The notes beneath the pieces are model-generated. The model ran no database searches. It was given only the letters and a program-made list of their open reading frames with translations, and had not been told where the DNA came from. From the NCBI GenBank assembly GCA_965242525.1, contig OZ251459.1:1472001-1536000 (forward strand): a stretch of 64,000 nucleotides of DNA, given 5' to 3'. Origin of the DNA: an uncultured Candidatus Binatia bacterium. GTDB taxonomy: Bacteria; Desulfobacterota; Binatia; UBA9968; JAJDTQ01. The position numbers were made by a program, and so were the translations under genes. This document shows, in pieces, positions 2,828 to 30,995 of this stretch (the first letter of the stretch is position 1; each line of letters begins with the position of its first letter).

Positions 2828-2914
2828 CTTTCGGACGCTGCGCACGCGGCCGCCCCCCGGCGCCGCGGCCCTGATCCCTCGACCCACCGCGCCCCCTTCC
2901 CGCAGGCCCGCCAC

Positions 2915-4090: not shown

Positions 4091-4153
4091 CCGGACGCCG
4101 GGGCGCTTGCGGGGAACCCTCCATGCGTTGTAGGGAAGATCGGGGGAGCATGG

Positions 4154-4197
4154 GCGCGTCCTTCGACTTCGCTTCGCTACGCTCAGGACGAACGGGG
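4154..4197 (+). repeat. REP-like core of dispersed MITE family A (copy 1)
   Basis: GCGCGTCCTTCGACTTCGCTTCGCTACGCTCAGGACGAACGGGG, near-identical to 12 other copies in the window. Confidence 0.9.
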
Positions 4198-4320
4198 ATG
4201 GGAGTGTCGAGGTGGGGGAATCCATCCCGGATGTTCCGGATGTCCCGACTGTCCGGATGTTCCTCAGGTCGGTTCCCCAGGTCGAAAGGCCGCACGCAAA
4301 CGCCGCACGGGAGGATGGCG

Positions 4321-5025: not shown

Positions 5026-5029
5026 GGCC

Positions 5030-5614
5030 ATGGCCCGGAAACTCGCCACCACACCGTCCCAGACCATTGGCCCGTTCCACCGGATCATGGTCCCCTGGGA
5101 AGGGGGCGCCGACCTGGCGGCCCCGGACGACCCCCACGCCATCCGGGTGCAGGGACGGGTCCTCGACGGCGCCGGGCAGCCGGTGGACGACTGCTTCATC
5201 GAGGTCTGGCAGGCCAACGTCCACGGCCGCTACGCCCATCCCGAGGACGGCCGTGAAGTCCCGCTGGTCCGGGGTTTCGACGGCTTCGGACGCACCCTCA
5301 CCGACCGGGACGGCCGCTTCCGTATGGTCACGGTCAAGCCCGGCCGCGTCCCCGGACCCGGAGAGACCCTGCAGGCCCCCCATATCTCCCTCTCCCTCTT
5401 CGCCCGGGGCCTGCTCAAGCGGCTGGTGACCCGCCTCTACTTCCCGGACGAGGCCGCGGCCAACGCCGAGGACCCGGTCCTCCGGTCCATCCCCGACCCC
5501 GCCCGCCGCAACACCCTGCTGGCGGCAAGACGGCCAACCCCCAAAACCCCGCCCGTGTACGAGTTCGACATCCACCTGCAAGGCCCCCGGGAAACGGTGT
5601 TCTTCGACGTGTAG
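5030..5614 (+). CDS. pcaG: Protocatechuate 3,4-dioxygenase alpha subunit
   Basis: TTPSQTIGPF, EVWQAN, QAPHI, RGLLKRLVTRLYF and ETVFFD motifs; directly follows pcaH. Confidence 0.95.
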   Translation: MARKLATTPSQTIGPFHRIMVPWEGGADLAAPDDPHAIRVQGRVLDGAGQPVDDCFIEVWQANVHGRYAHPEDGREVPLVRGFDGFGRTLTDRDGRFRMVTVKPGRVPGPGETLQAPHISLSLFARGLLKRLVTRLYFPDEAAANAEDPVLRSIPDPARRNTLLAARRPTPKTPPVYEFDIHLQGPRETVFFDV

Positions 5615-5715
5615 GCTTCCGGCGAGGCCCGTAGCGGCCTGCCTGCCGAAGGCCAAGCGCCATGCCGCTACGCAGGATTCCGTCACCGGCGGTACCCGTG
5701 GCGGTGGGAATATAG

Positions 5716-5832
5716 GGAACATCTGAACAATCGAGACATCCAGAATGGATTCCCGATTCCCTCACCCTGACGCCCTTACTCCCGTTCGTCCTGAGCGTAG
5801 CGAAGCGAAGTCGAAGGACGCGCTCATGCCCC
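5716..5832 (-). mobile_element. MITE family A copy (long form)
   Basis: GGAACATCTGAACAAT terminus, GGATTCCCGATTCC segment and REP core at 5781-5823. Confidence 0.75.
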
Positions 5833-5923
5833 CTGATATGAAAGTTAGCGAAGTTAGGGTTTTTTTGTAAACCGGGATAACTTTGCTATAAACCGACGCC
5901 GCGGACCCCATCCGCAATCCACA

Positions 5924-6033
5924 GGAAGGTCTGATCCATTCCGGCTTGGACTCCCTGTCCCTGTGGGAAAGCGCGTCCTTCGACTTCGCTTCGCTACGCT
6001 CAGGACGAACGGGGGTAATCGTTCAGGATTTCC
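5924..6033 (+). mobile_element. MITE family A copy (110-bp form)
   Basis: Imperfect termini GGAAGGTCTGATCCAT...AATCGTTCAGGATTTCC with REP core at 5971-6014; colinear with 50664-50773 and 62289-62398. Confidence 0.8.
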
Positions 6034-6097
6034 CGTGAGCTCCCGGAGGCGGCACGCCGCCACCGGAACCGGGCGAGGGGGCTTCGTCCGTGGAACC

Positions 6098-9000
6098 CTA
6101 CGACGAAGTCTTCAGGTCTTTCGAGACCTCGTCGGCAAGGAGTTGGTCCAGGGCGGCGCGGACCTGTTCCGGGGCGTCCTCATGGAGGGTGACGCGGACG
6201 TGGAAACGCAACTCGCTCCCTGCGCCGGCCTCCAGGAGTCGGGGGACCAGGTCCGCGAGCTCCTGTATCTGGTGGCCTTCGAGCACCGCGGCCGGCTCGG
6301 GCCGGGGCGGAGGCTTGGGCTGGGTGGGCCGCGTCAACCGCAGGTTCCCGGCGCCGTCGTAGCCGCAGTCCATGGGGCCGCTGTCCTCGGCCACCATGAA
6401 CCAGCGGCTCTCCACGCCGGCCCGGACGCTGTCGCGCACGAGACCCCAGGGAAGCGCCGCGCCCCGGGCCTGGGAAGCCGCCTGGGCGAGGGTGGCCCCG
6501 TTGGCCCTCCCGTCGCGCCATGCGCCGGGCAGGGCGTGTTCCCCGAGTTCCTGGGGCGGGATCATCCCGGGCGGCGGATGGAGCACCGCGCCCCGGTCGA
6601 GCACGCCGTAGGGCAATGTCTCCTTCCATACCGAGGCGGGTCCGTTGGTGAGCCACACCGTTCCCCGTTCCACGCCTCGCTGCACCGCCTCCCGGAGGAC
6701 CGTCTCCGGGCAACGCGGGACGGGGAAGGCGTCGTCGTATCCTTCCCGCGGGACCCGCGCCTCATGGCCGCCGCGGAAGTACTCCATCAGCGCCGGCCAC
6801 GTGAGCGCCGCCTCCGGACCCGCGTGCTTCGCCCCGTGCGCGTCGCCGCTTGCACCGGTCCAGAGCTCCGGCAGCGATCCCGGGGCCAACAGCCCTTCGG
6901 ACAGACGGTTCAACTCGGCCTTTTCCGGCAGCACCACCTCGAGCAACGGGTCCGCGCACGACTCCGGGTCCACCGCTTCGCGCCACCAGGTGCGGGCGCT
7001 GCCGTCGGGCCGGACGAGGCGCGCCGCCAGCAGGCCGCGTTCCACCCCGCGCAGCACCGTGTCCGCCACCACCTTGGGGTTCAGGACCTTGGGAAGACGG
7101 GGATACCGGGCGAAAGCCCCGGCCAGGTCCTTCACGAAGTGGGCCTCTTCGCCCTTGCGCCATAGGTCGTAGGGACCCTCCGGCAGCAACGCCTCTGCGT
7201 TCACCGCATCGCCCTTGATGCGCGCGCGTTCGTCGCTCCTGACCTCGGTGAACAGCGGTCTCGCGCCCGCGGGGAGCTGGAAGGCGTGGACTTGGTTGCG
7301 CTCGTCCACGGAGACCACCACGGAATATGCCTGCCGGACGGTGTCGGGCACTCGCCCGCGGGCCTCCTGGAGCCGGCGCCGCAGGCGCTCCGACCGGATC
7401 GGGTCCACATGGTGGCTGGAGAGCTGGCCCTGGACGTCCTCCCAGCCGAGCAGCGCGCGCACCGCGAAGCGCGCCGCTTCCAGCCCGTTGTGCGACGGGA
7501 CCGCCAGCACCACCGCGTTCCGGTGCACCCGCGGCCGGTCCGGTCCACCGGCCTCGTCCAGGAAGCGGCGCGCCCGCACGCTCGGCTTGCCGGAGTCGGA
7601 GACCGCGTCGGCCCCCAGCAGCACGTACCGGAAGCTGCCGTCGTCGCCCACGTCCCCGGGCGACTGCGGCAGCGTGTGCACGTTGGCCCCGGCCGCGCCG
7701 GCGCCCTCCGTCAGCGCTCTGGTCTTGCGTATGGCGTCCTCCAGCCGCGCGTCCACCGCCTCGGCGCTCACCCGCTGCTTGCAAGCCTCGTCGTGCATCT
7801 GGCGCAGGTTCGGCCGGTTGCCCAGCCGCCAGGACTTGGGCAGTTCCGGCGCCGCGGCCCGCCCTTCCGCCTCGCCCGCGTCGTCGTCGTCCAGGAACCA
7901 GGAGAGTTCCCGCCAGCGGCCCAACCCTTTCTCCATCTCAATGGCGTCCGGCGCGCGGGTCCCCGCCATCCGCATCAACTCCGGGGTATATGCCTTGTGC
8001 CCCACCGGCTGGGAATGGAGGAACACCGCAACCACGGACTGCTCGGCCTCCCGCCCTTCCCGAAGCGACGGAATCTCCTGCTGGATCTGCCGCGCCTTGG
8101 CCAACTCCGCCTCCAAGAGCGGGGTCCAGTCCGTCCGATTGCCCTCCGCGCCTTCGGTGGTGGCCACTCCCGCCAGCTCGCGCACCGCCTCCGACACCCT
8201 CGGCTCGCCGGGCGCGGCCAGCAGCGCCGAAGGGCCGATGAGGGGACAGTTGTCCCAGGGCTCGGCCTCCCGGAGCGCGGTGGCGAGGGTGCGCAGGAGG
8301 CCGCGGGTGCGCTGGAACCCTTCGAGCTGGGTCCAGCGGCTGTAGAAGACGTCGGTCAAGTCCGGGTGGAAGGGGAAGCTCTTGACGTAACGCTCTTCCG
8401 CGGCCGATTTCTCCCGGGCGGTGGCGTCGTCGAGCCTGGCAACCCCCCGCACCACGCCGATGACGTGGGAGCGGAAACGGTCCGGGTCCCGCACGTCCTC
8501 CGGCTCGAAGAAACGCCGGCGCAGCACCTCCGCCACGTCTTCCTTCTGCACCGGCTGCACCCCTTCCTCGCGCTGCCGCCGGAACACGTCGAACAGCCCG
8601 GCGATCAACTCCCGGCCCACGTCTCCCCGCTGCTTGGCCGGGTCGGTGGCCAACAGGGACGCCACCATCGCAGCCCGCTCCACCTTGGCCACCGCCTGGG
8701 TCAGGTACTGGAAGAAGTCCTCGATGCGGTCGCGCCACACCGGGTCCATGCCCGCCTTCTCCCGGGCGTACATCAACACTTCGTCCACCAGCACCAGGGT
8801 CGCCAACCCCTGCTCCTGCGGCTTCTCCAGGAGTTTCACCAGCAGCGGCTCCGCGGGCGGGGTCTCGCGCTCCTGGTCCCGGCCTTCGGCGTGGATGGCG
8901 CAGAGCCCCTCCGCCCCCGCGAGCTGGAAGGCGAGGACGCTCCAGGGGTGGCGCAAGGTGCGGGTCTCGCCGTCCGGCGCCCGCACCTCGTCCATGCCCC

Positions 9001-9430
9001 GCTCCACGTCGATCTTGTCGAAGCAGAGCGTCGCGGTGAACGCCCGCGGCAGCGGCGCGCCCACGTGCTCCCGGAACTCCTGCACCGCGGGCAGGTCGGG
9101 CAGCGCCTCCGGGTCCCGGAACAGGTGGTAGAGGGTGATGAGCGTATGGGTCTTGCCGCCGCCGTAGGTCAGCTCGAGCTGCCGCACCGCCTTGTCGCTC
9201 CGGCCCGCCAGCCGCCCGGCCACGTCCTTCACCAGTTCCCGCAGCGTGTGGGTCGGGTACGTCAGCGCAAAGAACTTCCCCGGCTCCTCGTACACCGCGC
9301 GCCGGCCCCGCCCCAGCGCCACTTCGTGGAGGTCCGCGGCGAACTCCGCAAGCGCAAGCTCGCCGGAACGCAACTCGTCCTTGAGGCGGACCACCGAGCG
9401 CCAGGGTTTGAGTTGGTTGTTGCGGGTCAT
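6098..9430 (-). CDS. DUF499 family AAA+ ATPase (restriction-like defence system)
   Basis: Start MTRNNQLKPWRSVV..EFAADL; Walker A LTYGGGKTH, Walker B VLVDE, FPFHP and FQRTRG motifs; ATGA overlap with the upstream gene. Confidence 0.88.
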   Translation of the reverse strand: MTRNNQLKPWRSVVRLKDELRSGELALAEFAADLHEVALGRGRRAVYEEPGKFFALTYPTHTLRELVKDVAGRLAGRSDKAVRQLELTYGGGKTHTLITLYHLFRDPEALPDLPAVQEFREHVGAPLPRAFTATLCFDKIDVERGMDEVRAPDGETRTLRHPWSVLAFQLAGAEGLCAIHAEGRDQERETPPAEPLLVKLLEKPQEQGLATLVLVDEVLMYAREKAGMDPVWRDRIEDFFQYLTQAVAKVERAAMVASLLATDPAKQRGDVGRELIAGLFDVFRRQREEGVQPVQKEDVAEVLRRRFFEPEDVRDPDRFRSHVIGVVRGVARLDDATAREKSAAEERYVKSFPFHPDLTDVFYSRWTQLEGFQRTRGLLRTLATALREAEPWDNCPLIGPSALLAAPGEPRVSEAVRELAGVATTEGAEGNRTDWTPLLEAELAKARQIQQEIPSLREGREAEQSVVAVFLHSQPVGHKAYTPELMRMAGTRAPDAIEMEKGLGRWRELSWFLDDDDAGEAEGRAAAPELPKSWRLGNRPNLRQMHDEACKQRVSAEAVDARLEDAIRKTRALTEGAGAAGANVHTLPQSPGDVGDDGSFRYVLLGADAVSDSGKPSVRARRFLDEAGGPDRPRVHRNAVVLAVPSHNGLEAARFAVRALLGWEDVQGQLSSHHVDPIRSERLRRRLQEARGRVPDTVRQAYSVVVSVDERNQVHAFQLPAGARPLFTEVRSDERARIKGDAVNAEALLPEGPYDLWRKGEEAHFVKDLAGAFARYPRLPKVLNPKVVADTVLRGVERGLLAARLVRPDGSARTWWREAVDPESCADPLLEVVLPEKAELNRLSEGLLAPGSLPELWTGASGDAHGAKHAGPEAALTWPALMEYFRGGHEARVPREGYDDAFPVPRCPETVLREAVQRGVERGTVWLTNGPASVWKETLPYGVLDRGAVLHPPPGMIPPQELGEHALPGAWRDGRANGATLAQAASQARGAALPWGLVRDSVRAGVESRWFMVAEDSGPMDCGYDGAGNLRLTRPTQPKPPPRPEPAAVLEGHQIQELADLVPRLLEAGAGSELRFHVRVTLHEDAPEQVRAALDQLLADEVSKDLKTSS

Positions 9431-10068
9431 ACAGCCGCCTCCCTCGGAAACCAGGCCTGGAGGGTCTTCCTGAGATCGTTGAAAGCGGGGTCCCGGCAGC
9501 CGTCGAGTCGGACGGAGGCGGCCAATTCCCGGAACAGGGCCGATGAAAGCACCTTTCCCTTGCGGCGGAGCGCCTGCTCCACGGCCCGTTTCGGGTCGGA
9601 AGGCTTGGGTTGCGGCGCGGGCCAGAAGCCTTCCGCCTGAAGCCATTCCCGTAACGGCTCGAAACTGCGGCCCCATCCCAGCACATGGGCGACTCGCCCG
9701 GACCGGCTCCAGACCCAGGACTCCAGTTCCGGATCGATGACGATGGCTCTGGAACGCTCCCTCCAACCGTTGCGTCCCAATTCGTCTTCGACTTCCTTCC
9801 GGACCTCCGCGGGCGCCTTTTCTTCGTTGCCGCACCCCCGGTGATCGAAGACCACCAGCGCGTGTTGATAGCTGTTGATCAACGGACGCAGGAATTCCGC
9901 GGACCGGGTTCGACACCCCGGGTCCGATTCCGGGTGTCGGCGGACGTCGAACGACATGGCGTGGATTCCCAGGTCCGAGGGGCGGCTGAGCAACGTCTCC
10001 AACACGGACGCGATGTGTTTGTCCGCCGCCAGAACGATGAGGTGACGCGGCGCTGTACCGGACATCAT
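9427..10068 (-). CDS. ATPase-associated protein, MAD4-like / DUF4276-like (putative TOPRIM-type)
   Basis: LIVLAADK..LLSRP..LGI..HPESDPGC..VFDHRGCG..IDPELESWVW..DPK pattern, recalled from MADS Mad4-like proteins; translationally coupled on both sides. Confidence 0.65.
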   Translation of the reverse strand: MMSGTAPRHLIVLAADKHIASVLETLLSRPSDLGIHAMSFDVRRHPESDPGCRTRSAEFLRPLINSYQHALVVFDHRGCGNEEKAPAEVRKEVEDELGRNGWRERSRAIVIDPELESWVWSRSGRVAHVLGWGRSFEPLREWLQAEGFWPAPQPKPSDPKRAVEQALRRKGKVLSSALFRELAASVRLDGCRDPAFNDLRKTLQAWFPREAAV

Positions 10069-11333
10069 CCGAGCACTCCTGCCGCAAAGAAGACGCTCAG
10101 GTTCGGGGAACCCTGCCAGTCCTTCAGGCCGGGATGCGACCGAGCCGGAACCACGTCCGTCGCTCCGTCAGCGTCCTTTCCGAAGCACAGGACGTGCTCC
10201 AGGTCCACGCGGCTCAGGAAGACCGGGGAGTGGGTCGCCAGAAGCACCTGGGATTCGTACACGGAGCACAAGGCGTCGTAAACGTCCTCCATGACCCCCG
10301 GATGCAGTCCGTTTTCCGGCTCTTCCATGAGATAGACTTTCCCGGGGTCCCGGAGATAGGCCGGCAAGGTCAACGCCAGCAGCCGCAGCGTTCCGTCCGA
10401 GAGCATCCACGAAGGGACCTCCACCCCCGACTCGTAGCGGAGCATCAGGTAGCAGTGGCGGTCGTCTTCGCGTTCCACCACTCGGATGTCCCCGATTTCG
10501 GGCAGCGCGGCGCGGACGTGGCGCAACCAGTCGTCGAACGCGGCGCCGTGTTCTTTTCGGAGTCGTCGGATCACCCGTGGAAGGTTGGAGCCGTCCGGAG
10601 AAAAGACCTCCCGCCGCCTCTCCGGAGGGTTGGACTGGCGCATTCGGGAGCTGTCCAGGAAGAGTCTCTGCATCCCCGTATCCAGTAGCCGTTTCAGGTA
10701 AGTGGAGACCGGGAAATTATCGGGGGACTCGGGCAGGTTGCCCAGGGTCGATCTTCCGGGGCCGAACGAGACATTGATCGTCCATCCTTTCCCCGCTCGT
10801 TCGGATACCTCGCTGTGGAAGCTGTCCCCTCCTCCGCGGGATTTGCTCAGTATCGTTCTCGAACCCGGGGGTCCGCCGCCGATCAAGATGGTTTCCGGCG
10901 CCGCGGGAGGACCCGGGAAAAGTACGCCTTGCCGCATGGGAGACTGCTTCTTGCGAGGCATCAGGAGGCCCCTTTCGGAGTCGATGCGTATTCCGTCCTT
11001 CCCCTCCCGGATCGCTATCTCGTAACGGAACGACTCGAACGGCTTGTCCCGAGCCAGTTTCTCCTTCACCTCCACGGGGATGTCGAACTCCAGCGCCAAC
11101 TCGAAGCCGAGGCCTTGCCCGGGTCGGTCCCATACCAGGTCCTGGAAATTCCGCGTGCGCTTTTCCACCGCTGCTTCCAGACCCGCGGACACCACGTCCC
11201 CCATGAACTGCACGACGTCCAGCAGCGTGCTCTTGCCGCTGGCGTTGGGGCCTACCAACACGTGGAAGCGGTCGAGGCGCACGTCCACGTAGCGAAGACA
11301 ACGGTAATGGAGCGCCTGGATGCGGCGGATCAT
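10065..11333 (-). CDS. ABC-type/AAA_21 ATPase, MAD3-like
   Basis: Walker A GPNASGKST, signature LSDGTLR, Walker B LMEEPENGLHP, H-loop ATHSP. Confidence 0.88.
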   Translation of the reverse strand: MIRRIQALHYRCLRYVDVRLDRFHVLVGPNASGKSTLLDVVQFMGDVVSAGLEAAVEKRTRNFQDLVWDRPGQGLGFELALEFDIPVEVKEKLARDKPFESFRYEIAIREGKDGIRIDSERGLLMPRKKQSPMRQGVLFPGPPAAPETILIGGGPPGSRTILSKSRGGGDSFHSEVSERAGKGWTINVSFGPGRSTLGNLPESPDNFPVSTYLKRLLDTGMQRLFLDSSRMRQSNPPERRREVFSPDGSNLPRVIRRLRKEHGAAFDDWLRHVRAALPEIGDIRVVEREDDRHCYLMLRYESGVEVPSWMLSDGTLRLLALTLPAYLRDPGKVYLMEEPENGLHPGVMEDVYDALCSVYESQVLLATHSPVFLSRVDLEHVLCFGKDADGATDVVPARSHPGLKDWQGSPNLSVFFAAGVLG

Positions 11334-11342
11334 GGGACGAAC

Positions 11343-14300
11343 TTACAACAAAGCACTCTGGCGCGGAACCTGCGCGCCGCCGCGGGTGCGGACGTGGTTC
11401 TGGATGGACTCCAGGAGCGAGCGCTCTTCCGTGCCGGTCTCGGCCAGTTCGATGAGGGCCTGCACCACCCGGGCGAACAGGTCGTGGCGCCACAGGCCCT
11501 GGGACTCCAGGTAGCCGTCCACGCGGCTCTGCTCGCCGGTCTTCCAGAGCTGCATCAGCTTGTGCACACGGTCGATGAGCGGAGCCGGGCCGCCCCCCGC
11601 GGACGGTTCGCCCAGGTCCCGGGCGCCCCGGCGGCGCCACTCTTTGAGCCGGGCCTCGCTCCCGGAGACCTCCCGCCCCTCCTCCCCTTCCCCGTCTTCC
11701 GCGGACCCATCGCGCCCGCCGCGCGCCAGCAGGTCCAGCCGCCCGGTCAAGTCCGCATCCGACAGGTTGCACGACAGGGCGTAGAGGATGCACGCCCCGG
11801 CCGGGGCCGCGCCGAGGCCGAAGTCGTTGCGGTGCAGCAGGTAGTAGGTGGTGAGGTCGTCCAGGTCGTCGTTCGCGCCGCCCTCGCCTTGCAGCAGCCG
11901 GCTCACCACGAACCCCACCACCATGCGCCGCACCTGTCGCAGGAACTCGGCCACCGACAACCGCTCCCCCTCCCGGTCCGCCTTCCGCACCACCGGATGC
12001 CGGCTGAACGCCTCCAGCGCCGGCCCGGTGGCCGCCCACACGAAGTCCGGCCCCCGTATCCCCGCGTCCCAGAAGTCCCGCAGCCGCTCGACGATGTTCT
12101 CCTGCATCTCCGACAGCACCCTGCCGTCCCAACCCGGACGCGCCGCGGCCGGACGCTTCTTGCACACGAGCCAGATGGAGGAAGAAAGCGCCGCGGAAGA
12201 CAGCGAACGCTGGCGGGTCTGCATCTCGGTCTGGATGGGCCAGGAGCCGTCCACCACGAAGCCCGCCCGGATGAGCGCCGACACCAGGGTCTCCCAGGCG
12301 TCCGGCTGCTTGTTGGCGAAGACCAGCACCAGCCGCCCGTCCTCCCGCAAGGCGTGGTGGAAGCGCGCGAAGGCCCGGGCCATCCCGTCCTCGTAGTTCC
12401 GCTTGGACGCCTGCCGGTCGCCGCCGAAGCGGCTGGCGTCGTCGATCAACTCGCCGTCGCCCGCGTCCGCGTCCCATTTCGGGCCGAGCGGCTCGGCGAA
12501 CGCGGCGTCGGTTTCCGGCGACAGCCCGTGCAACGCCCGGCGCAGCCAGACATGGAAGAAGTCCATCAGGTCGGAATACGGGATCGCGTCGTAATAGGGC
12601 GGGTCGGTGCAGATCAGGTCGAAGCCGCCGGGCTCCAACTCCATGAACCCCTGAACGATCCGGACAGGGGGCATGAGCGCGTCCTTCGACTTCGCTTCGC
12701 TACACTCAGGACGAACGGGGGACTCCGCTTCGCTACGCTCAGGACGAACGGAGACAGGGGCGTCAGGATGAGGGAATCGGGAATCCATCCCGGAGGTCTC
12801 GATTGTCATCTGCCGGCGGAGCGCCGGGTCCTTGTCGCCCTCGCGGAATCGGGAATCCGTCCCGGATGTCTCGATTGCCATGGCCGATTGCCGCAGCACG
12901 GTCGGTGCGGGCGCCTCCGCCGTAGCAGTCTGGAGGTGCTCGACTACGCGAGCGATCCACTCCACGGCCTGGATGAAGCCGCCGCTGGTGTCCTCCAGCG
13001 GACACGACTCGGCGAAGTCCCACACCATGGGCAAGGCGAAACGGGCGAAGGTGCTGCGAGTGTTCTCACGATCGTTGGTCCACGTAGCGAGCGCGCTGCC
13101 GCGGTCGGCCAGTCGGCTGATGGTCGGCGCCAAGTACGCAACCAGCGCCTCGCGCCATTCCTCCGGGTAGCCACCGACAGGCTCCGCGCCGGGAAACCCT
13201 GAACCATCAGCCGTGGATGGAGATATTCCCTCACCTGACCCTCCCATCCCCGTTCGTCCTGAGCGTAGCGAAGCGAAGTCGAAGGACGCGCCCATCAGTT
13301 CCGCGTTGCGGCGGATCTCCCGGACGAACGTTCCCAACGCAAGGAGTTGCCGGTTGGTGAAGAGCTTGCGCCAGGAGTCGAGACCGTAGCGCGGTATTCG
13401 CATGCCCAAGCTCTGCTCGCCGGGCGTAGGTTCGTCAGGCAGACCAAAGGGAATCTCCCTGTAGAGCGCATCGAGTTCCTGCTCCGTTACGCGCGCTGCT
13501 TCGACCTCAGCCTCGGTGGGCAATCGGTATTCCTTCCCCTCCTGCCCGTCCACCACCACCGCGGTCATGCGCTCTCCGAGGCGGCCCATGCGACCCTCGG
13601 TGCGGATGTCCCGCATGGGGACGATGGCCCCGCAGCACGGACACTTGGCGCCGCTCCCGCTCATGGTGCCGGCCCCGAGACCCCGGTCGTGCTCGCGCTT
13701 CTGCGCAGAGCTGCCGCTGCCCGCCGCGGCGTTGCCCTCAATGCCGAACACGACGCCGGCCCCGTCCTCCCGCGGCTCCATGGTGAGCCGCACCCGCTTC
13801 TTCGCGGTCTTGCACAGCCATCGCGTCTTCAGCAGAGGCACCTCCGCCCGACAGCCGCCGCACCGCACCGTGCGCGCCCAGAGATACGCCACCGCAGGCT
13901 TCGCCACCCACCGCGGGTTGGCCTCGTTTTCGAGATAGAGCGAGTCGAACTCCGCGTTGAGCGAAGCCGCGGACGCCCGCCCGTCTTCGTCCGGTTCCAG
14001 CAGCCTCGGCTGCCGGGGCCGGTAGCGCGCCGCCCGCGACAACCGGGTCCGCCCGCCCCCCTTGCGCCGGACCGGCTCGAACTCCGCATACGTGGGATAA
14101 CGCCGCGCCAACTCCCGCCGCGCCCCGGACAGCACCCGCCTTCCCCACGCCCGCAGATGCCACGCGAAACCCGCGCGCGCCTCCGGCGCCGCCGCGTCCA
14201 GCCAGGGCGCCGGCGCCTGCACCCCCTCCCCGTCCTCGTGCCCGTACCGCGCCATGGCCTCGCGCACCATGGCCGCGGTCGTCACCCCCTGCGCCTTGAG

Positions 14301-14858
14301 GAACGCCGCCGCGAACTCCCGGTCCTCCAACGCCCACTCGGGCAACTCCCGTGTCTTCCCCGCCAGCAGCCGCGGATAATGCAGCGTGCAGCGCAGGAGG
14401 AACCACGCCACCGGGTTGATGTCCGCAGCCACGGCCTCGCACCCGAGCCGCATGGCCTCCAGCGGAATCGCCCCGCCTCCGGCAAACGGGTCCAGCACCC
14501 GCGGCGCCCGCCCGCCGAACGCCTCCCGGACCTCCTCCCGGAACCGCGCCACCTCCGGGCCTCCCTCCCGCCCCCACCGAAAGATCCCGCCCCGGGTCTC
14601 CGCCCGCTCCCCCGTAGCGCCCCGCGTCTCCACCACCTGCCCGGCCATCCGCTCCAACACCTTGCGGCGGGCCTCCCGTCCGTCCGGCGCCGGCAACAAC
14701 GTCGCCAGCAACGCCGCCCGACTCGCCGCCAACGGCCGCCGCGCCGGCCAGATGTGCAGCGTGGAAACGTGCCCGTGCCGCACGTTCTTCTCGTGCACGG
14801 AGTCCAGGGACACCTGCCTGAGAGGGAAGGCGGATTCGATGAGACGGCGGTGCGTCAA
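11343..14858 (-). CDS. DUF1156 adenine-specific DNA methyltransferase carrying two in-frame MITE insertions
   Basis: LHIWPARRPLAASRA, motif I VLDPFAGGGAIPLEA, CxxC pairs, motif IV TDPPYYD; TTG start. Confidence 0.9.
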   Translation of the reverse strand: MTHRRLIESAFPLRQVSLDSVHEKNVRHGHVSTLHIWPARRPLAASRAALLATLLPAPDGREARRKVLERMAGQVVETRGATGERAETRGGIFRWGREGGPEVARFREEVREAFGGRAPRVLDPFAGGGAIPLEAMRLGCEAVAADINPVAWFLLRCTLHYPRLLAGKTRELPEWALEDREFAAAFLKAQGVTTAAMVREAMARYGHEDGEGVQAPAPWLDAAAPEARAGFAWHLRAWGRRVLSGARRELARRYPTYAEFEPVRRKGGGRTRLSRAARYRPRQPRLLEPDEDGRASAASLNAEFDSLYLENEANPRWVAKPAVAYLWARTVRCGGCRAEVPLLKTRWLCKTAKKRVRLTMEPREDGAGVVFGIEGNAAAGSGSSAQKREHDRGLGAGTMSGSGAKCPCCGAIVPMRDIRTEGRMGRLGERMTAVVVDGQEGKEYRLPTEAEVEAARVTEQELDALYREIPFGLPDEPTPGEQSLGMRIPRYGLDSWRKLFTNRQLLALGTFVREIRRNAELMGASFDFASLRSGRTGMGGSGEGISPSTADGSGFPGAEPVGGYPEEWREALVAYLAPTISRLADRGSALATWTNDRENTRSTFARFALPMVWDFAESCPLEDTSGGFIQAVEWIARVVEHLQTATAEAPAPTVLRQSAMAIETSGTDSRFREGDKDPALRRQMTIETSGMDSRFPHPDAPVSVRPERSEAESPVRPECSEAKSKDALMPPVRIVQGFMELEPGGFDLICTDPPYYDAIPYSDLMDFFHVWLRRALHGLSPETDAAFAEPLGPKWDADAGDGELIDDASRFGGDRQASKRNYEDGMARAFARFHHALREDGRLVLVFANKQPDAWETLVSALIRAGFVVDGSWPIQTEMQTRQRSLSSAALSSSIWLVCKKRPAAARPGWDGRVLSEMQENIVERLRDFWDAGIRGPDFVWAATGPALEAFSRHPVVRKADREGERLSVAEFLRQVRRMVVGFVVSRLLQGEGGANDDLDDLTTYYLLHRNDFGLGAAPAGACILYALSCNLSDADLTGRLDLLARGGRDGSAEDGEGEEGREVSGSEARLKEWRRRGARDLGEPSAGGGPAPLIDRVHKLMQLWKTGEQSRVDGYLESQGLWRHDLFARVVQALIELAETGTEERSLLESIQNHVRTRGGAQVPRQSALL
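12646..12882 (+). mobile_element. MITE family A derivative inserted in frame (79 codons) in the methyltransferase
   Basis: GAACCCCTGAACGAT terminus, REP core 12677-12720 plus partial core 12726-12752; CCATG at 12641-12645 and 12878-12882, 237 bp apart. Confidence 0.8.
13191..13292 (-). mobile_element. MITE family A copy inserted in frame (34 codons) in the methyltransferase
   Basis: GGAAACCCTGAACCA terminus at 13192 and REP core 13248-13291; translates as SFDFASLRSGRTG within the enzyme. Confidence 0.8.
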
Positions 14859-14947
14859 TTTCCTGCTCGGATGAGATCAAAAAAGAAAGGAATGCGACCT
14901 GATTTCGAGTGTCCACACCTTTCAATGCAACATGATCTAGTCACTGT

Positions 14948-15249
14948 CAATAGTGTCCGGTTAAGGATGGAATAAAATCAGAAACTGCTCGGCGCAACTC
15001 AGTGTGCGGACGCGGTGGTCGCCACGGTAACGCGAGACCAGTCGGGCAAAGGTGGTCCAGGGCAGAAAGTCCATCAGTTGAGCGAACAGCGTCTTGCCAT
15101 GATACATGGGATCCTCCAGGGCTTGGACTCCCCAAAGCATGCCCGAAACGGCAATCCGCGTTCAAATCCACACCACCCTTTTCCGCCTGTAACTCCCTGT
15201 CATATATGAAGATTTTCGACCCTACGCGCTCGTTAACCGGACAGCAGTG
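14948..15249 (-). mobile_element. Non-autonomous IS4-family deletion derivative (302 bp)
   Basis: TIRs CAATAGTGTCCGGTTAA / CACTGCTGTCCGGTTAA (14/17), perfect 9-bp flanking duplication AGTCACTGT at 14939-14947 and 15250-15258, internal truncated transposase N-terminus. Confidence 0.88.
14961..15107 (-). pseudogene. Truncated IS4 transposase N-terminus (DUF4372-like), 48 aa
   Basis: GGAGG RBS then MYHGKTLFAQLMDFLPWTTFARLVSRYRGDHRVRTLSCAEQF, joined directly to the right IS end. Confidence 0.82.
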
Positions 15250-15820
15250 AGTCACTGTCTTCTTTTATTCGCCGCGGCTTCCGCCAAGAAGAGAATAGCA
15301 GCCGCCGTCATATGCAACACATAACCAACGATATACCCTGGAACGGTCCGTGGAGCCGAGCCCTGTCCGTGGCCGCCAAGCTTGTTTCTTCCGGTAGGTA
15401 CGCTGCTCTCAAGGAGGCTTTTCAGTGATTGAAAATTCTGCTGCCAGAAAGACGGAATTAGCCCGTTGTCGAGACAAATACCGATCAGCTTGCTTGCGCC
15501 GGCTCCATCATCGTAAAGCCAGCCCTTTTTGTCGCAGATCGACTTCATCACGCTCTCGAATGCCTTCAAACATTCATTAAGAGCCTCTTCTGCATTTCCC
15601 TGCCGGTAATGCTTATGGGCACGAAGGAACTCCTGTTGTGCTCCGGCATATTTTTTTCGACAAAGCAGAGTTAGTGCAGGTTTGACGACTTCTGCATGGA
15701 TTAACTGGGAGTCCATACGGATGATTTCACCGTTGACAAAAGAGTAACCGATGCCGTGTTCCCTGAATCTGTGGTTGAGTTCTTCTATCGCTTGATCTGT
15801 GACATCTGATAACTTATTAA

Positions 15821-16916
15821 GGTTCTCAGAATAGAAACCATTACAAGTTCGTATAACAAGTAGTGGGAGCATGGAAGAAGCTCCGTATCAAAGCAGGCAG
15901 TTGTTGCATCCGACGCAGGTGAGACATGGTCATGGCTCGCAAGGTTTCCCGGGATGTGATCCGCTTGCGCCCCAACGCCTGGTTCTTCAAGTTGTTCCAC
16001 ACCAGTTCGTCCGGGTTGAGTTCCGGCGAGTACGGCGGCAGGTAATGCAACTCGAGCATCCCTTCCTGTTCCTCCACGAAACGCCGCACCGACTTGGCCC
16101 GATGGACCGGGTGGCCGTCCACAATCAGGAAAATGGGAGAGGTCGCATTCACCATCAGGCGTCTGAGAAACCCGATGAACACCGGCGCCGTCACTCGCCC
16201 CGGAGTCACCATGAAGCGAAGATGCCCACGGGCGCTGATGGCAGAGATGAGGTTCGCCCCGAACCGCGCCCCCGTGCCCGACACCACCGGAGTATGCCCC
16301 CGAAGCCCCCAGGTCGTGCCCCAATGACTGTCCGAACGAACCCCCGCCTCGTCTCCGAAGAAGATCTGCGCCCCCACACGCTTCGCCCGGTCATGCAGCT
16401 TCGGGTATTCCTCCTCCCGCCAATGACGGGCCGCCTCCGGATCCTGTTGATAGGCACGCCAAACAGGACGCTGCACGCTCAATCCCATCTGCCCCAGCAA
16501 CCGGCACACCGTACTGTGACTCAGCCGCACACCCCATCGCCTGTCGATCAGCTCCTGCACCATCTTCGCCGTCCACAGCGCAAACGGAAACCGCAACTGC
16601 AACGGGTTCTTCTCCACCACCGTGTCATAAACCCATTTCAGCGCCCTCGCATCCAGCTTCGGAGGCCGCCCTCCTCGCTTGCGGGCGTCCAGCTTCCCCC
16701 ATCCCCCGCTGCGGTACAACGCCAACCAACGGAACACCGTGCGCAGGTTCACTCCCATGGCCGCCGCCACTTCTGTCGGCTTCGACCCCGCTTGCAGGCT
16801 CGCAATCCCGCGCCGGCGCAATTCCGTCAAGGTCCGATGATCCAGTTTTCGTCCGTCCGTGTTCATACCCGTTATCATACTATACTTCTGGTTCTATGGC
16901 AACTAAAATCGGACCC
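15821..16916 (-). mobile_element. IS630-family insertion sequence
   Basis: Flanked by TTAA at 15817-15820 and 16917-16920; weak imperfect terminal IR; single transposase ORF. Confidence 0.9.
15841..16878 (-). CDS. IS630 family transposase
   Basis: HTH N-terminus, FGDEAG, LIVDGHPVH and LPPYSPELNPDELVW DDE motifs. Confidence 0.95.
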   Translation of the reverse strand: MITGMNTDGRKLDHRTLTELRRRGIASLQAGSKPTEVAAAMGVNLRTVFRWLALYRSGGWGKLDARKRGGRPPKLDARALKWVYDTVVEKNPLQLRFPFALWTAKMVQELIDRRWGVRLSHSTVCRLLGQMGLSVQRPVWRAYQQDPEAARHWREEEYPKLHDRAKRVGAQIFFGDEAGVRSDSHWGTTWGLRGHTPVVSGTGARFGANLISAISARGHLRFMVTPGRVTAPVFIGFLRRLMVNATSPIFLIVDGHPVHRAKSVRRFVEEQEGMLELHYLPPYSPELNPDELVWNNLKNQALGRKRITSRETLRAMTMSHLRRMQQLPALIRSFFHAPTTCYTNL

Positions 16917-17237
16917 TTAATAAAAGATAGTTCAACTGCATCAAGGACTTTTTCCGTATCTGATTCTTGTATCAGATAGTTGAAAAGGTCTGTGACTTTA
17001 TTTTTATCGTAGTCCATTCCTGGATAATTAACCGGAAGACGAAGAATGCCGTACTCTCGACACAATGTATCAACAACGAACTCATATGTTTGCGTAGCAT
17101 GGTTTGCGTAAGGATATTTATCAAGTGGATCCCTCAAAATATGTACTATCTGAACTCTAAGCGGTTCCGGAATAGAATCATAGGAATAAACATCAGGCAC
17201 TTCACCTCGAAGTTTCTTCTGTCGTTTGGAAAAAAGG

Positions 17238-17477
17238 TCAAATATCGGCATCGCCCCTGACTCCCTTCCGTCCCTTTGGTTGCCCTGGTCTTTGCGAAAG
17301 CCACTCCGGACCCGGCTTCTCCCAGACCATCTTTCCGTTCTCGAACACGACCACCCTTCCACCGACCGCCGCGGCCTCACGGCGCGCACGTTCTCCTGCT
17401 CTCCGCAGCGCTGCCTCAACGCTCGTGAAGTCCGGGTCACCGAGCCGCTCAGGCGGTATCTCTTCATGGGTACTCAT
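17238..17477 (-). CDS. Small putative antitoxin partner of zeta-like ATPase
   Basis: 79 aa, AALRRA..AR..VVVFENGK pattern typical of genes after zeta-like ATPases; 4-bp overlap. Confidence 0.6.
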   Translation of the reverse strand: MSTHEEIPPERLGDPDFTSVEAALRRAGERARREAAAVGGRVVVFENGKMVWEKPGPEWLSQRPGQPKGRKGVRGDADI

Positions 17478-18007
17478 CGTCTTCGACTCCCTTCAGCCAA
17501 CAGTATCGGGACGCGCCCTGAATTGTCATAGACCTTCCAGTCATCTACCAAGTCACGATACACGTTCTCGAAATTGAGCCACCCTTTGGAAAAACGCCGT
17601 ACAACCACGGATTCCGGTATGTCGTGCCCACCATGCAAAACCCGCTCTGCAACCCGGGAGATTGCCATGTCAGGCGTCGGCAACCGCAAGAAAACGACCC
17701 GTACCCGATACCCCTGATCCCGCCATCGGGGAATCAGCCTGGCGTAACCGCGTCCGCTCAACGTCGTTTCAAAGGCGAAGCTGTCTCCCCTTCTCGCGTG
17801 TTCGCGGATCTCCGCCAGCATCAGCCTGCCAGCCCGAACCATGACCGACTCCGGACGAAACGGGCTCAACCCCGCGGCGATGAGGTCCGCGTTGACGAAG
17901 ATCGGGCAGTCCGCCTCGTTCGGGAGATACTCCATGGCAAAGGTCGTCTTCCCCGCCCCGTTCGGGCCAGCGATGATCAGGATCTTCCTGGAGTCCGTTC
18001 CCGCCAT
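17474..18007 (-). CDS. Zeta-toxin family P-loop ATPase/kinase
   Basis: IIAGPNGAGKTT, FVNADLIA, FAFETTLSG, RV..GGHDIP and YDNS motifs. Confidence 0.88.
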   Translation of the reverse strand: MAGTDSRKILIIAGPNGAGKTTFAMEYLPNEADCPIFVNADLIAAGLSPFRPESVMVRAGRLMLAEIREHARRGDSFAFETTLSGRGYARLIPRWRDQGYRVRVVFLRLPTPDMAISRVAERVLHGGHDIPESVVVRRFSKGWLNFENVYRDLVDDWKVYDNSGRVPILLAEGSRRR

Positions 18008-18068
18008 CAAGCCCCCCCTCAATATACCCCATCAGACCCGCCGCTTCGACCAGGAAGCACACGGGGAC

Positions 18069-18872
18069 CTACCCATCCTCGTACCGCGCCGCGTAGATCG
18101 TGAGCTTGGTCGCTTCCCCGACCTGCTCCAGGTCCGGCCGGCGGCCCGACAATTTCAGGCTGTCCCGCACCAGGTTCAGGAATCCCTCGCCCCGCGCTTC
18201 CATGAAGCTGCCGCCGGTGACCGTGCTCTTGTAGTCTCGCATGAAACCGGCCAGGAGTTGGTTGCGGCGGACGGGTTGGCAGCCGGCGTAAAGGTTCTCC
18301 ACGGTCAACGTGTTGTAGAGCGCGCCGGGGTTCTGGAACTCGATGCGGCCCGGAAACACGCGGATGAGGACCTGCGAGCCTCGAACCTCGTAGTCCCGGT
18401 GGACCACAGCGTTGACCACGGCCTCCTGGAGCGCCCGGTTGGCGTAGCTCGGATAGTCGTGGCGGCCGTCGTCCTCCTTCCTGGACACCGTCGGCGTCAG
18501 AGGCGACAGCATCAGGTACTTGGTCGCCTGCCTGATCTGTTCCGGCACAGGCCCGGTGATGCGTTCGCTGTCCGCGGAGTTGCCGTCCGGCGCGTCATGT
18601 CTGTAGGAAGCCATGTCGATGAAGGTGCCCGGGACGTACTGCTCGGGCTGATCGGCGAAGAGGAGGATTCCCAAGTGCGTCGGCGTCGGGCCGGAGTCGG
18701 TGACCGCGGCGAGCTTGTGAGCCGTCAGGACCGGGAGCCAATCGTCAGGCGGCGACCACTCCGGGAAACGGGCGCGGAAGTAGTGCTCCAGCCGGTCCCT
18801 TTTCAGGTCATCCAAGCCGCTGCCTATCACAGGCCGCTCCTCCAGCGGACCGAGCGGAGAACCCGGGATCAT
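18069..18872 (-). CDS. HATPase_c_4 / RecG-C-like ATP-binding protein lacking the usual N-terminal AlbA_2 domain
   Basis: GILLF, ALQEAVVNAVVHRDY, IEFQNPG, RNQLLA and MEARGEG motifs. Confidence 0.78.
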   Translation of the reverse strand: MIPGSPLGPLEERPVIGSGLDDLKRDRLEHYFRARFPEWSPPDDWLPVLTAHKLAAVTDSGPTPTHLGILLFADQPEQYVPGTFIDMASYRHDAPDGNSADSERITGPVPEQIRQATKYLMLSPLTPTVSRKEDDGRHDYPSYANRALQEAVVNAVVHRDYEVRGSQVLIRVFPGRIEFQNPGALYNTLTVENLYAGCQPVRRNQLLAGFMRDYKSTVTGGSFMEARGEGFLNLVRDSLKLSGRRPDLEQVGEATKLTIYAARYEDG

Positions 18873-19330
18873 TGCAAAAGCTCTTCCATCTTCCGAGCGA
18901 ACTTCCTGGCGTTGTCGAAATACTCCGTAATTCGCCCAACGCTGATGTTTGCGAAGCGTCCATGGGCAATCCGGTTCCGAAGTCCTACGATACTGTTCAC
19001 GCTCTCGCTGATGTTCTCGTCAACGAAATCGCGGAGATCATCAGCGATGTCGCTGTCGAGTCTTTGCACCAGATTCAGTATGTTGTCCATACTCGGGTTC
19101 GGAAACCGATCCAGGCTTCGGCTCACAAAGTTGACAACCTTCGGATTCGCCCGCTTTCTCGTATATTCCAGCACTGCGCCTCGACACATGGCTTCCAGGT
19201 AGCCCGAAGCCCATATCGTCATGAGCTGGGCAAGCCACACTTTATTTTCCTCCGACAGTTGCGGGGAAGCAGCATCATTGCGCGCGGAATCGATAGCCGT
19301 TTCCAAGCGCCTGCTGTCCTGAAAACTCAT
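18869..19330 (-). CDS. HEPN-domain protein (MAE_28990/RiboL-PSP-like)
   Basis: SGYLE N-terminal motif, NPS, and RNRIAHG (Rx4H) catalytic motif. Confidence 0.8.
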   Translation of the reverse strand: MSFQDSRRLETAIDSARNDAASPQLSEENKVWLAQLMTIWASGYLEAMCRGAVLEYTRKRANPKVVNFVSRSLDRFPNPSMDNILNLVQRLDSDIADDLRDFVDENISESVNSIVGLRNRIAHGRFANISVGRITEYFDNARKFARKMEELLQ

Positions 19331-20433: not shown

Positions 20434-20588
20434 GTCGTCCCTCGTCTTCCAGAACCGTTCCGGCGCCTTGCCACGGTCGTCGGGGAACGGCCGCTCCTGG
20501 CAACTCCACCGCGTCAGTCGAATCGCCATGCTCTCCGGTCGGAAGTTTAACGAAGGGGTCCCGCACATGCAACGAACGGTCTCCCCTT

Positions 20589-30994: not shown

Positions 30995-30995
30995 G

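Follow-up and report, generated by a model that had tools for sequence, protein, structure and literature searches.

What is a pair of genes encoding an ABC-type ATPase and a small partner protein doing inside a DNA-methylation operon? The question is raised by a stretch of 64,000 nucleotides (hereafter, the window) from an uncultured Candidatus Binatia bacterium, where the two genes lie between those for a DUF1156 methyltransferase and a DUF499 ATPase. The first-pass annotation of this DNA had pictured the pair, wired into the operon, as a candidate for a new, hybrid defence system that guards the methylation core. The features concerned are the following:

10065..11333, minus strand: mad3-like gene, 422 aa, OLD-type ABC ATPase of the HEC-01A / MAD3 family (NCBIfam, PADLOC, Pfam, PDB sequence match)
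9427..10068, minus strand: mad4-like gene, 213 aa, predicted Toprim-like nuclease partner (NCBIfam, PADLOC, AF2 and Foldseek)
11343..14858, minus strand: hmaB, DUF1156 N6-adenine methyltransferase, Hma / type-1 BREX-related (PADLOC, Pfam)
6098..9430, minus strand: hmaC, DUF499 AAA+ ATPase (PADLOC, Pfam)
20589..24140, minus strand: hmaA, helicase of SNF2 type ending in a nuclease-like NOV_C domain (PADLOC, Pfam)
14947..20400 (left end approximate), minus strand: second embedded cargo block, between hmaA and hmaB (composition, Pfam, NCBIfam, PADLOC)

The layout that had been described, an ATPase and a 213-aa partner between the methylase and DUF499 genes, with ATGA overlaps and a 9-nt gap, was confirmed, and both ORFs are intact. 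Read as the reverse complement of 9380..11420, hmaB (14858..11343) ends in a TAA at 11345..11343 and is followed by the 9-nt spacer, the 422-aa ABC ATPase gene with its ATG at 11333, the partner gene and hmaC. The MAD3-like and MAD4-like genes share an ATGA at 10068..10065 (GGATGATG), and a second ATGA at 9430..9427 (GTATGACC) joins the MAD4-like gene to hmaC, which runs from 9430 to 6098. AGGAG and GGAGG motifs stand about 9 nt upstream of the MAD4 and hmaC starts; the same read revealed no AGGAG/GGAGG-type motif upstream of the MAD3-like start. Because both proteins are full length on curated profiles, their ORFs are not chance ORFs. In a scan of 5600..15400, promoter-like sites (1 vs 0.5 expected) and terminator-like sites (5 vs 5.5 expected) were at the level of shuffled sequence and thus uninformative, and none of them fell between the four minus-strand genes.

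The flanking genes were also identified as proposed, with Pfam matches to DUF1156 (2.2e-17) and DUF499 (5.3e-18). PADLOC recognised the same proteins as HmaB (1.7e-111) and HmaC (8.7e-74), and a helicase further upstream as HmaA (7.8e-167), in which Pfam found Helicase_C, ResIII, SNF2-rel_dom and NOV_C (residues 1090-1144). With HmaA, HmaB and HmaC all on the minus strand, the operon is assigned, from these profile matches, to the Hma / type-1 BREX-related systems. The window proteins score below the cut-offs of the NCBIfam anti-phage sets for DUF1156 (NF042963; methylase 148.9 bits vs 1000) and DUF499 (NF042962; ATPase 70.8 bits vs 1200), and of the phospholipase-D type helicase profile (helicase 121.7 vs 1100). 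The cargo block at 14947..20400 has a lower G+C (0.58-0.61) and encodes, according to Pfam and NCBIfam, NsnA/GmrSD-like, HEPN, HATPase_c_4, zeta-toxin-like kinase and AbiJ-like proteins; NsnA is also matched in PADLOC (4.6e-71), and the AbiJ-like gene is interrupted by IS630.

The ATPase matched the NCBIfam equivalog for MAD3 (NF047739) with 457.5 bits (cut-off 420, E 5e-137), its residues 1-421 covering positions 1-427 of the 427 in the profile. In PADLOC its best match was HEC-01A (3.6e-44), with mad3 at 6.3e-34; Pfam returned AAA_21 and AAA_15, and the PDB sequence match was the OLD nuclease of Thermus scotoductus (6p74, 6.8e-10). An alignment of 21 sequences shows no variation in the segment GPNASGKST with the Walker A lysine K34, in SDG at 312-314, in EEPE at 337-340 or in H368, and the ABC ATPase motifs, from the Walker A lysine and the Walker B/D-loop acids to the signature and the H-loop, are well supported as intact. 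The partner likewise matched the equivalog for MAD4 (NF047734; 218.9 bits vs 160, E 7.3e-65; residues 8-208 on positions 1-206 of 206) and the PADLOC mad4 model (2e-8). With both equivalog cut-offs passed, membership of the pair in the MAD3/MAD4 family is well supported by profile evidence, which bears out a resemblance to Mad3/Mad4 that had been proposed at first pass.

The AF2 model of the partner (pLDDT 88.4, pTM 0.84) was compared by Foldseek with a PDB set that ends in April 2026 and lacks the Pseudomonas MAD3-MAD4 structure. The top five matches were C-terminal Toprim regions of OLD proteins, including 6njw and 6nk8 (prob 0.95-0.99); these matches were modest (TM 0.41-0.49, all E values between 3e-3 and 8e-3, with no match reaching 1e-3). 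From the model we predict a Toprim-like fold holding an acidic pocket for metal binding, the fold match being modest. Residues D75, E114, E116, K155 and K160 are invariant in 28 sequences, with D16 and D49 nearly so, and the acidic Toprim motifs, judged from this alignment, are well supported as intact. A PDB sequence search with the partner gave 0 matches at E <=1. Assignment to the Toprim, AriB or DUF4276 families of Pfam was also considered, and neither the window protein nor its 28 relatives matched; for DUF4276, which the first-pass annotation had named as a candidate, this means 0/28 family members at E <=1. RloB was the sole weak Pfam match in the family (3/28, best E 0.069).

What the homologues do is known from Pseudomonas aeruginosa, where MAD3 and MAD4 assemble 2:2 into an ATPase-nuclease complex; it cuts DNA, including plasmid DNA in vitro without a phage trigger (PMC13662399). 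We compared the pair with a complete MADS locus (L080), in which MAD1-8 all score above cut-off, mad5 is annotated as a specificity subunit, and methylase, MAD3 and MAD4 follow one another with 4-nt overlaps. The MAD3-like protein is 34% identical to its counterpart there (E 3e-66) and the MAD4-like protein 38% (E 4e-43). As in MADS, the window genes come directly after an N6-adenine methylase gene; the Walker A K34 bears the same number as in MAD3 (PMC13662399), and the acidic residues of the partner are spaced like D12, D55, D81, E119 and E121 of MAD4 (PMC13662399). There are also differences: R77 of the window protein aligns with the second acid of the LDCD motif of the canonical locus (presumably E83 of PMC13662399), and the upstream methylase, DUF1156/HmaB, is unrelated to MAD2 (best BLASTP E 1.6). 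The window as a whole was also considered as a MADS system, for which the detection model of the MADS authors makes MAD6, MAD7 and MAD8 mandatory (10.1101/2023.03.30.534895). No MADS model beyond MAD3/MAD4 matched in the ORFs scanned, and a tblastn search of the window with canonical MAD1 and MAD5-8 drew no match.

Next, we considered whether the two proteins would bind each other. A complex prediction, which had been suggested at first pass, yielded an interface with an ipSAE of 0.76 vs 0.01 for the best control, a mark reached by 116/157 solved complexes and 2/215 mismatched pairs; since a solved complex of this kind exists (Pseudomonas MAD3-MAD4), this pass may mirror likeness to it and not be independent support. 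The runs share at least 80% of contacts, with a partner pLDDT of at least 86. Thus, the MAD3-like and MAD4-like proteins are predicted to bind each other. The predicted interface holds MAD4 residues 16-18 and 46-50, adjoining the conserved D16 and D49, which fits a catalytic site at the interface as stated in PMC13662399.

Is the arrangement new? According to Payne et al. (bioRxiv 10.1101/2024.01.29.577857), HEC-01, for Hma-embedded candidate 01, is an ABC ATPase and TOPRIM pair nested in Hma; the window shares with it the two-gene cassette between hma genes, for which models exist in PADLOC-DB. It differs in two respects. The window partner matches the mad4 model only, with no HEC-01B match at E <=1 (17/28 of its relatives do match HEC-01B, best 1.1e-7), and the window Hma carries a second, larger embedded block at the other junction. 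A 2026 survey treats TOPRIM-linked OLD-ABC modules as backup effectors that BREX and DUF499-centred BREX-related (BR) systems have recruited (PMC12839542). The window presents the same dyad class in the same host class, and fits the type-1 BR systems of that survey, with an ATPase, a methylase and a helicase that carries a nuclease at its C-terminus. The idea of a new or hybrid system therefore had to be dropped, as the arrangement is catalogued as HEC-01 (ATPase 3.6e-44) and described in PMC12839542. The locus is probably one more example of a described class, in a known arrangement, from an uncultured lineage.

A single protein family is called HEC-01 in one literature and MAD3-MAD4 in another, and the portions of text searched show no citation between the two: MADS is absent from those of 10.1101/2024.01.29.577857 and PMC12839542, and Hma/HEC-01 from that of PMC13662399. 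Because the family is the same, the 2026 structure and biochemistry of MAD3-MAD4 (PMC13662399) would supply the cassette embedded in Hma with a working mechanism.

The suggested ABC-ATPase and Toprim layout of OLD/PARIS-type modules found support in the 6p74 match, the AF2/Foldseek result for the partner and the work on MAD3-MAD4 (PMC13662399). The likeness to OLD nucleases lies in the ATPase sequence (6p74) and in the partner fold (6njw, 6nk8). In OLD and in Gabija GajA, ATPase and Toprim occupy one polypeptide, whereas the window has two genes with a stop between them; by this comparison the pair may work like an OLD nuclease while not being a fused member.

We consider it fairly probable that the pair is a portable split-OLD nuclease cassette (MAD3-MAD4 / HEC-01), co-expressed with Hma as an extra, co-regulated defence layer. 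An OLD-type nuclease split over two proteins would be nested between hmaB and hmaC on the same transcript. Co-expression is suggested by the 4-nt overlaps and the 9-nt spacer, alongside which we list the GC3 of the MAD3-like gene (0.79; the ORFs that contain hmaC and hmaB have 0.84-0.88). By analogy with the homologues of Pseudomonas aeruginosa (PMC13662399), the pair would assemble as a heterotetramer with two chains of each protein. Assembly would activate DNA binding and ATP hydrolysis, and DNA would be cut at the Toprim site with Mg2+. Comparative data suggest that the cassette would be self-contained and portable, and would ride in the Hma operon as an additional layer.

The similarity to PARIS bears on the guard idea. 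In that reading, MAD3 would sense phage anti-restriction proteins (Ocr, ArdA, Stp-like) or the inactivation of Hma, and free MAD4, whose cleavage of nucleic acid would abort the infection in the manner of PARIS or PrrC/EcoprrI. PARIS resembles the window pair as a split ABC ATPase and Toprim nuclease whose activation is controlled by assembly; its AriA is a hexameric scaffold that senses Ocr, and its AriB, a DUF4435 protein, cleaves tRNA (summarised in PMC13662399). Of the expected kinship to AriA/AriB, only part was found. The ATPase is partially similar to AriA (PADLOC 2.1e-30, residues 284-374 only; PDB 6.5e-4), whereas neither the window partner nor its 28 relatives matched AriB or DUF4435. 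A classification of the pair as PARIS was rejected, as it has no AriB/DUF4435 partner and its AriA match is not full length. PrrC, in the EcoprrI type I R-M locus, likewise is an ABC-ATPase-type effector nested in a methylation-based system. PrrC-EcoprrI is the textbook precedent for a guard. PrrC differs as a single-chain anticodon nuclease that is held inactive by the R-M complex, and the analysis gave no sign of such control in the window pair. The guard hypothesis has these precedents and is already printed in 10.1101/2024.01.29.577857 and PMC12839542. Nonetheless, we regard it as highly doubtful: AriB, DUF4435 and DUF4276 are matched by 0/28 partner-family members, the characterised complex needs no phage trigger in vitro to cut plasmid DNA, HEC-01 conferred no protection against the coliphages tested (10.1101/2024.01.29.577857), and free-standing copies would have no system to guard.

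How free-standing the family is can be seen in the closest 79 loci of 553 relatives found, which are not a random sample; the context counts rest on tblastn, and gene calls in high-G+C loci sometimes picked antisense ORFs. MAD3 lies directly upstream of MAD4 in 79/79 of these loci (aligned ends -1 to 28 nt apart), and the pairing of the two genes is obligatory. Full HmaB and HmaC accompany the pair at 10/79 loci, and Hma remnants at 2 more; flanks of 1.5 kb or longer at both ends are available for 64 relatives, 54 of which have no adjoining full Hma, 2 of them keeping remnants. Neighbours with a family match are mostly housekeeping genes (such as xylB, acpS, fabD/G, leuC/D, gltX, atpD, recG). 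Since most close relatives are free-standing, the cassette would be independent of Hma. Mobility of the cassette is supported by a tree built from 53 pairs, where the Hma setting takes 6 changes, at least 5 of them forced by well-supported branches. The linkage to DUF1156-DUF499 operons proposed at first pass consequently holds in so far as the pair recurs in such operons (10/79), while the 54/64 show that it is not tied to this core.

The same 79 closest loci of 553, mostly free-standing, bear on whether the pair is core or accessory in MADS. None of them is a MADS locus; MADS models matched 0/100 of the nearest same-strand neighbours of the closest relatives, and tblastn with canonical MAD1, MAD5, MAD6, MAD7 and MAD8 hit 0/80 sequences (the best 80 of 553 relatives). 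MADS loci are probably among the more distant of the 553.

When Hma is present, the pair occupies the hmaB|hmaC junction in 10/11 Hma loci including the window (9/10 without it; closest of 553), the exception being L034, where it lies between hmaA and hmaB. Such placement could reflect a functional link with the methylase, and speaks for an integrated restriction arm, in which HmaB (with HmaC) would read methylation status and license cutting of unmethylated DNA by MAD3-MAD4, a role that MAD2/MAD5 appear to play in MADS. There, mad3 and mad4 are needed for whole-system defence, a mad3 deletion strain keeps methylation and loses defence, and mad5 can be deleted only jointly with mad2 or mad3 (10.1101/2023.03.30.534895), which argues for an integrated role in MADS and against an independent one. 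The methylase-MAD3-MAD4 order is common to L080 and the window (here with the 9-nt spacer), though the methylases are unrelated. Moreover, in 10.1101/2024.01.29.577857, HEC-01 alone in E. coli gave no protection against any phage tested, so autonomous defence by the MAD3-MAD4 family is not demonstrated by that work. Against such an arm stand the 54/64 well-flanked relatives with no full Hma and their mostly housekeeping neighbours, an Hma association gained or lost at least 5 times, and a nuclease-like domain of Hma's own, the NOV_C on HmaA (helicase-nuclease fusions occur in 79% of type-1 systems; PMC12839542). On balance, we judge an integrated arm to be unlikely.

Further observations go against the extra-layer reading. 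In the window as in MADS, the pair comes next after a methylase gene, and the window partner has no HEC-01B match and only modest Foldseek matches.

A broader version of the coupling idea, distinctly unlikely in our estimate, is that MAD3-MAD4 would act as a plug-in restriction nuclease, able to dock onto N6-adenine methylases that are unrelated to one another (MAD2, HmaB) and to borrow their self-methylation read-out. If true, it would account for the position of the pair immediately downstream of the methylase gene in MADS and Hma alike, for the use of the hmaB|hmaC junction in 10/11 Hma loci (closest of 553), and for the inactivity of HEC-01 in E. coli when no methylase partner was supplied.

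Finally, the pair is almost certainly not an inert passenger, that is, a horizontally inserted cassette whose function has been lost. Hma loci do gather many embedded genes, one neighbour has already been split by IS630, and degraded Hma remnants flank the pair in two relatives (L027 and L006). Set against this, both ORFs are full length on their profiles with conserved catalytic motifs, 4-nt overlaps link their frames to those of the adjacent genes, and the closest relative among the matches listed (L001), in a Candidatus Binatia genome, keeps both genes at about 90% identity. In the plasmid collection, a single record carries a relative of the pair, and it is a canonical MADS.

The ABC ATPase gene and its partner gene lie on the minus strand, in a window whose G+C content is high throughout (0.58-0.72 in 2-kb steps). 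Reading this strand across 9380..11420 reproduced exactly the coordinates and junctions that the first-pass annotation had given for the pair (9427..11333), with a 9-nt spacer between the stop codon of the upstream gene, hmaB, and the start of the 422-aa ORF.

11345..11343, minus strand, TAA stop codon of hmaB
11333..10065, minus strand, MAD3-like ORF (422 aa)
10068..9427, minus strand, MAD4-like ORF (213 aa), ATGA overlap with the 422-aa ORF
9430..6098, minus strand, hmaC ORF (1110 aa), ATGA overlap with the 213-aa ORF
24140..20589, minus strand, hmaA (PADLOC HmaA, 7.8e-167), SNF2/ResIII/Helicase_C with a C-terminal NOV_C domain

The 1171-aa protein upstream of the pair matches Pfam DUF1156 and PADLOC HmaB (1.7e-111), and the 1110-aa protein downstream matches DUF499 and PADLOC HmaC (8.7e-74). 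Because of these matches and that of HmaA, we assign the host system, at the sequence level, to Hma, which has been renamed a type-1 DUF499-centred BREX-related system (PMC12839542). The NCBIfam 'anti-phage-associated DUF1156/DUF499' set was ruled out as host (148.9 bits against a cut-off of 1000, and 70.8 against 1200).

Both embedded proteins passed the NCBI equivalog cut-offs at full length, as the earlier assignment to MAD3 and MAD4 of the methylation-associated defence system (MADS) had anticipated: 457.5 bits for MAD3 (cut-off 420) and 218.9 for MAD4 (cut-off 160). The best PADLOC match of the ATPase was HEC-01A, from Hma-embedded candidate 01 (3.6e-44), ahead of mad3 (6.3e-34). The protein carries Pfam AAA_21 and AAA_15 and is akin in sequence to the Thermus OLD nuclease 6p74 (6.8e-10) and, more weakly, to PtuA and AriA; K34, SDG 312-314, EEPE 337-340 and H368 are invariant among 21 sequences. 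The partner has no Pfam family and matches only mad4 in PADLOC (2e-8). Its 28 relatives all match the mad4 model, and 17 of them a HEC-01B model as well; neither DUF4276, which the first-pass annotation had named for comparison, nor any Toprim family was found in the 28 at E up to 1. The AlphaFold2 model derived from the 28-sequence alignment was confident (pLDDT 88.4, pTM 0.84), and each of its five best PDB matches was the C-terminal Toprim region of an OLD protein from Xanthomonas or Burkholderia, with probabilities of 0.95-0.99 but E-values of only 3e-3 to 8e-3 and TM of 0.41-0.49. D75, E114, E116, K155 and K160 of the partner are invariant; D16 and D49 are almost fully conserved.

Structure prediction of MAD3 with MAD4 gave an ipSAE of 0.76 (0.78, 0.75 and 0.76 in three runs), against 0.01 for the best control; of 157 solved complexes 116 attain this mark, as do 2 of 215 mismatched pairs. 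At least 80% of the contacts agreed between runs, the partner's pLDDT was at least 86, and the predicted interface includes MAD4 residues 16-18 and 46-50, next to conserved acids. The prediction supports binding between the two proteins and, because a like complex has already been solved, its pass may reflect mere likeness to that complex. According to the structural report (PMC13662399), MAD3 and MAD4 of Pseudomonas aeruginosa assemble into a 2:2 heterotetramer with ATPase and DNA-binding activity that cleaves plasmid DNA in a Mg2+-dependent manner, MAD3 alone lacking ATPase activity and MAD4 alone being insoluble; the Toprim pocket (D12, D55, D81, E83, E119, E121, K164) lies at the interface.

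Our comparisons demonstrate the family, motifs, pairing and portability of the cassette. We propose that it is probably a self-contained split-OLD nuclease, acting as an extra layer beside Hma. It would share a transcript and translational coupling with Hma and, by homology, would assemble 2:2 and cut DNA.

A protein search returned 354 partner relatives at E up to 1e-3, and scanning a single genome for each species gave 553 loci with a relative, the best 80 of which were kept, yielding 79 loci at 43-90% identity; the closest among these best 80 is in a Candidatus Binatia MAG. MAD3 lay directly upstream of MAD4 in 79/79 of these best-scoring loci (tblastn with the window proteins), with -1 to 28 nt between their aligned ends. 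Full-length HmaB and HmaC surrounded the pair in 10 of the 79, all ten having flanks of at least 1.5 kb to either side; the expected linkage to DUF1156/DUF499 recurs, but in only 10 of the 64 loci flanked to this extent. Clustering of all ORFs in the 79 loci revealed no other recurrent neighbour. MADS models at E up to 1e-10 matched none of 100 annotated neighbours (from 180 candidates; the nearest two per side, same strand, at least 110 aa, one per cluster, HmaB and HmaC excluded), and those with a family match were mostly housekeeping genes. The one match on a plasmid, from Piscinibacter gummiphilus, served as a positive control and carries a complete MADS in which MAD1-8 all exceed their cut-offs. 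Its MAD3 and MAD4, used as queries, found matches in 80/80 sequences (79 loci and the window), MAD2 a weak match in one, and MAD1, MAD5, MAD6, MAD7 and MAD8 none. The window pair is 34% (MAD3) and 38% (MAD4) identical to this canonical pair, the two methylases are unrelated, and other MADS genes were not found elsewhere in the window.

The main alternative is an integrated restriction arm, in which the pair is coupled to the methylase. MADS genetics favour it: mad2-4 and mad6-8 are required for defence, a mad3 deletion strain still methylates the plasmid, and mad5 can be deleted only together with mad2 or mad3 (10.1101/2023.03.30.534895). So do the position of the pair behind the methylase in both MADS and Hma and the inactivity of HEC-01 alone, which in E. 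coli conferred no protection from any phage on the panel (10.1101/2024.01.29.577857). However, most pairs in the 79 best-scoring loci are free-standing and Hma has its own nuclease domain, and we consider such an arm unlikely. The MADS detection model makes MAD6-8 mandatory and MAD3/4 accessory, 'not reliably detected in all systems' (10.1101/2023.03.30.534895).

The cassette also appears to have moved. A tree of concatenated MAD3 and MAD4 covered the window and 52 of the 79 loci, the other 27, including Hma loci L012, L016 and L034, being left out by a filter for an intact, adjacent MAD3 ORF. It cuts across phyla, and the Hma-embedded state changes six times for eight embedded rows, with at least five changes forced by well-supported branches; 26 of 500 label shuffles gave as few as six. 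These changes indicate, at the level of the tree, that the cassette entered or left Hma repeatedly. Two loci (L027, 8191-11882; L006, 8425-8655) hold only short HmaA, HmaB and HmaC remnants around an intact MAD3-MAD4, including the last 50-70 HmaB residues just upstream of MAD3, which suggests that some free-standing pairs are leftovers of decayed Hma. In the window and nine of the ten Hma loci the pair occupies the hmaB-hmaC junction, whereas L034 has it between hmaA and hmaB. The hmaB-hmaC junction also holds tandem MAD3-MAD4 pairs (L012, 6648-10636; L067, 2626-10624), an extra ABC ATPase with a PIN protein (L062, 6243-8672) and extra ABC ATPases (L003, 3912-5779; L016, 10546-11886), and is by gene content a hotspot for ABC-ATPase cassettes.

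The first-pass annotation had regarded the pair as a candidate for a new hybrid system, a guard triggered by phage anti-restriction proteins. This novelty was not borne out: the arrangement and, as a hypothesis, the guard idea are already in print. Embedded genes occur in 931 of 1,485 Hma systems, HEC-01 is described as an ABC ATPase with a TOPRIM partner, and anti-defence proteins are put forward as possible triggers of embedded ABC-ATPase systems, on the precedent of PrrC/Stp and PARIS/Ocr (10.1101/2024.01.29.577857); OLD-ABC/TOPRIM modules in DUF499-centred systems are interpreted as a backup layer against anti-restriction (PMC12839542). The guard is a special case of the autonomous cassette, and we judge it improbable in that specific form. 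A link between HEC-01 and MAD3-MAD4 was not found in the literature searched: 'MADS' does not occur in the accessible parts of these two reports, nor 'HEC-01', 'Hma' or 'embedded' in the structural one, and among the first 12 of 44 papers matched for HEC-01 and MADS terms none contained both.

A second, larger embedded block lies between hmaA and hmaB (14947-20400, minus strand; G+C 0.58-0.61 against ~0.68-0.72 around it), with more genes than the three-per-junction limit of the HEC survey.

within ORF 21429..19327, minus strand, NsnA/GmrSD_N-like protein (PADLOC NsnA, 4.6e-71)
19330..18869, minus strand, HEPN RiboL-PSP protein
18872..18069, minus strand, HATPase_c_4 protein
18022..17474, minus strand, zeta-toxin/AAA_33-like kinase
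17467..16880 and 15872..15252, minus strand, two parts of a split STM4504/CBY_0614 gene
15255..14947, minus strand, 102-aa ORF

The split gene (AbiJ_NTD4 and DUF7014) is interrupted by an IS630-family transposase gene (16878..15841, minus strand; NCBIfam 1.4e-71). An intact member of its family stands directly upstream of hmaB in L076 and L012, with an AbiJ_NTD4-only match in L062, and seems to accompany this clade of Hma repeatedly. The closest relative among the best 80 of 553 (L001, 90% identity) has the order hmaB-MAD3-MAD4, an extra gene, hmaC, and different cargo (2071-5219, 10783-12676): SIR2_2 and weakly Piwi-like proteins upstream of hmaB, and a Peptidase_M78 (IrrE-like) protein between MAD4 and hmaC, whose frame is apparently split in the ORF list.

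Within hmaB, two pairs of in-frame direct repeats coding repeated peptides (12688-12881, ~residues 660-725) comprise 31-33 nt at 12688-12751 and 37 nt at 12773-12809 and 12845-12881; the 37-nt unit has no further copy in the window, and the stretch coincides with the region (~q669-717) where every related HmaB alignment breaks. A gene for a 503-aa AAA_14 and DUF4143 ATPase (24137-25648, minus strand; Pfam 1.3e-18 and 4.2e-26) ends 4 nt inside the hmaA start. Aromatic-catabolism genes surround the defence locus (1207-5614 and 25695-33480), with protocatechuate 3,4-dioxygenase alpha and beta directly after hmaC on the plus strand (4212-5614) and, on the other flank, protocatechuate 4,5-/gallate-type dioxygenase subunits, thiamine-pyrophosphate enzymes and an acyl-CoA ligase.
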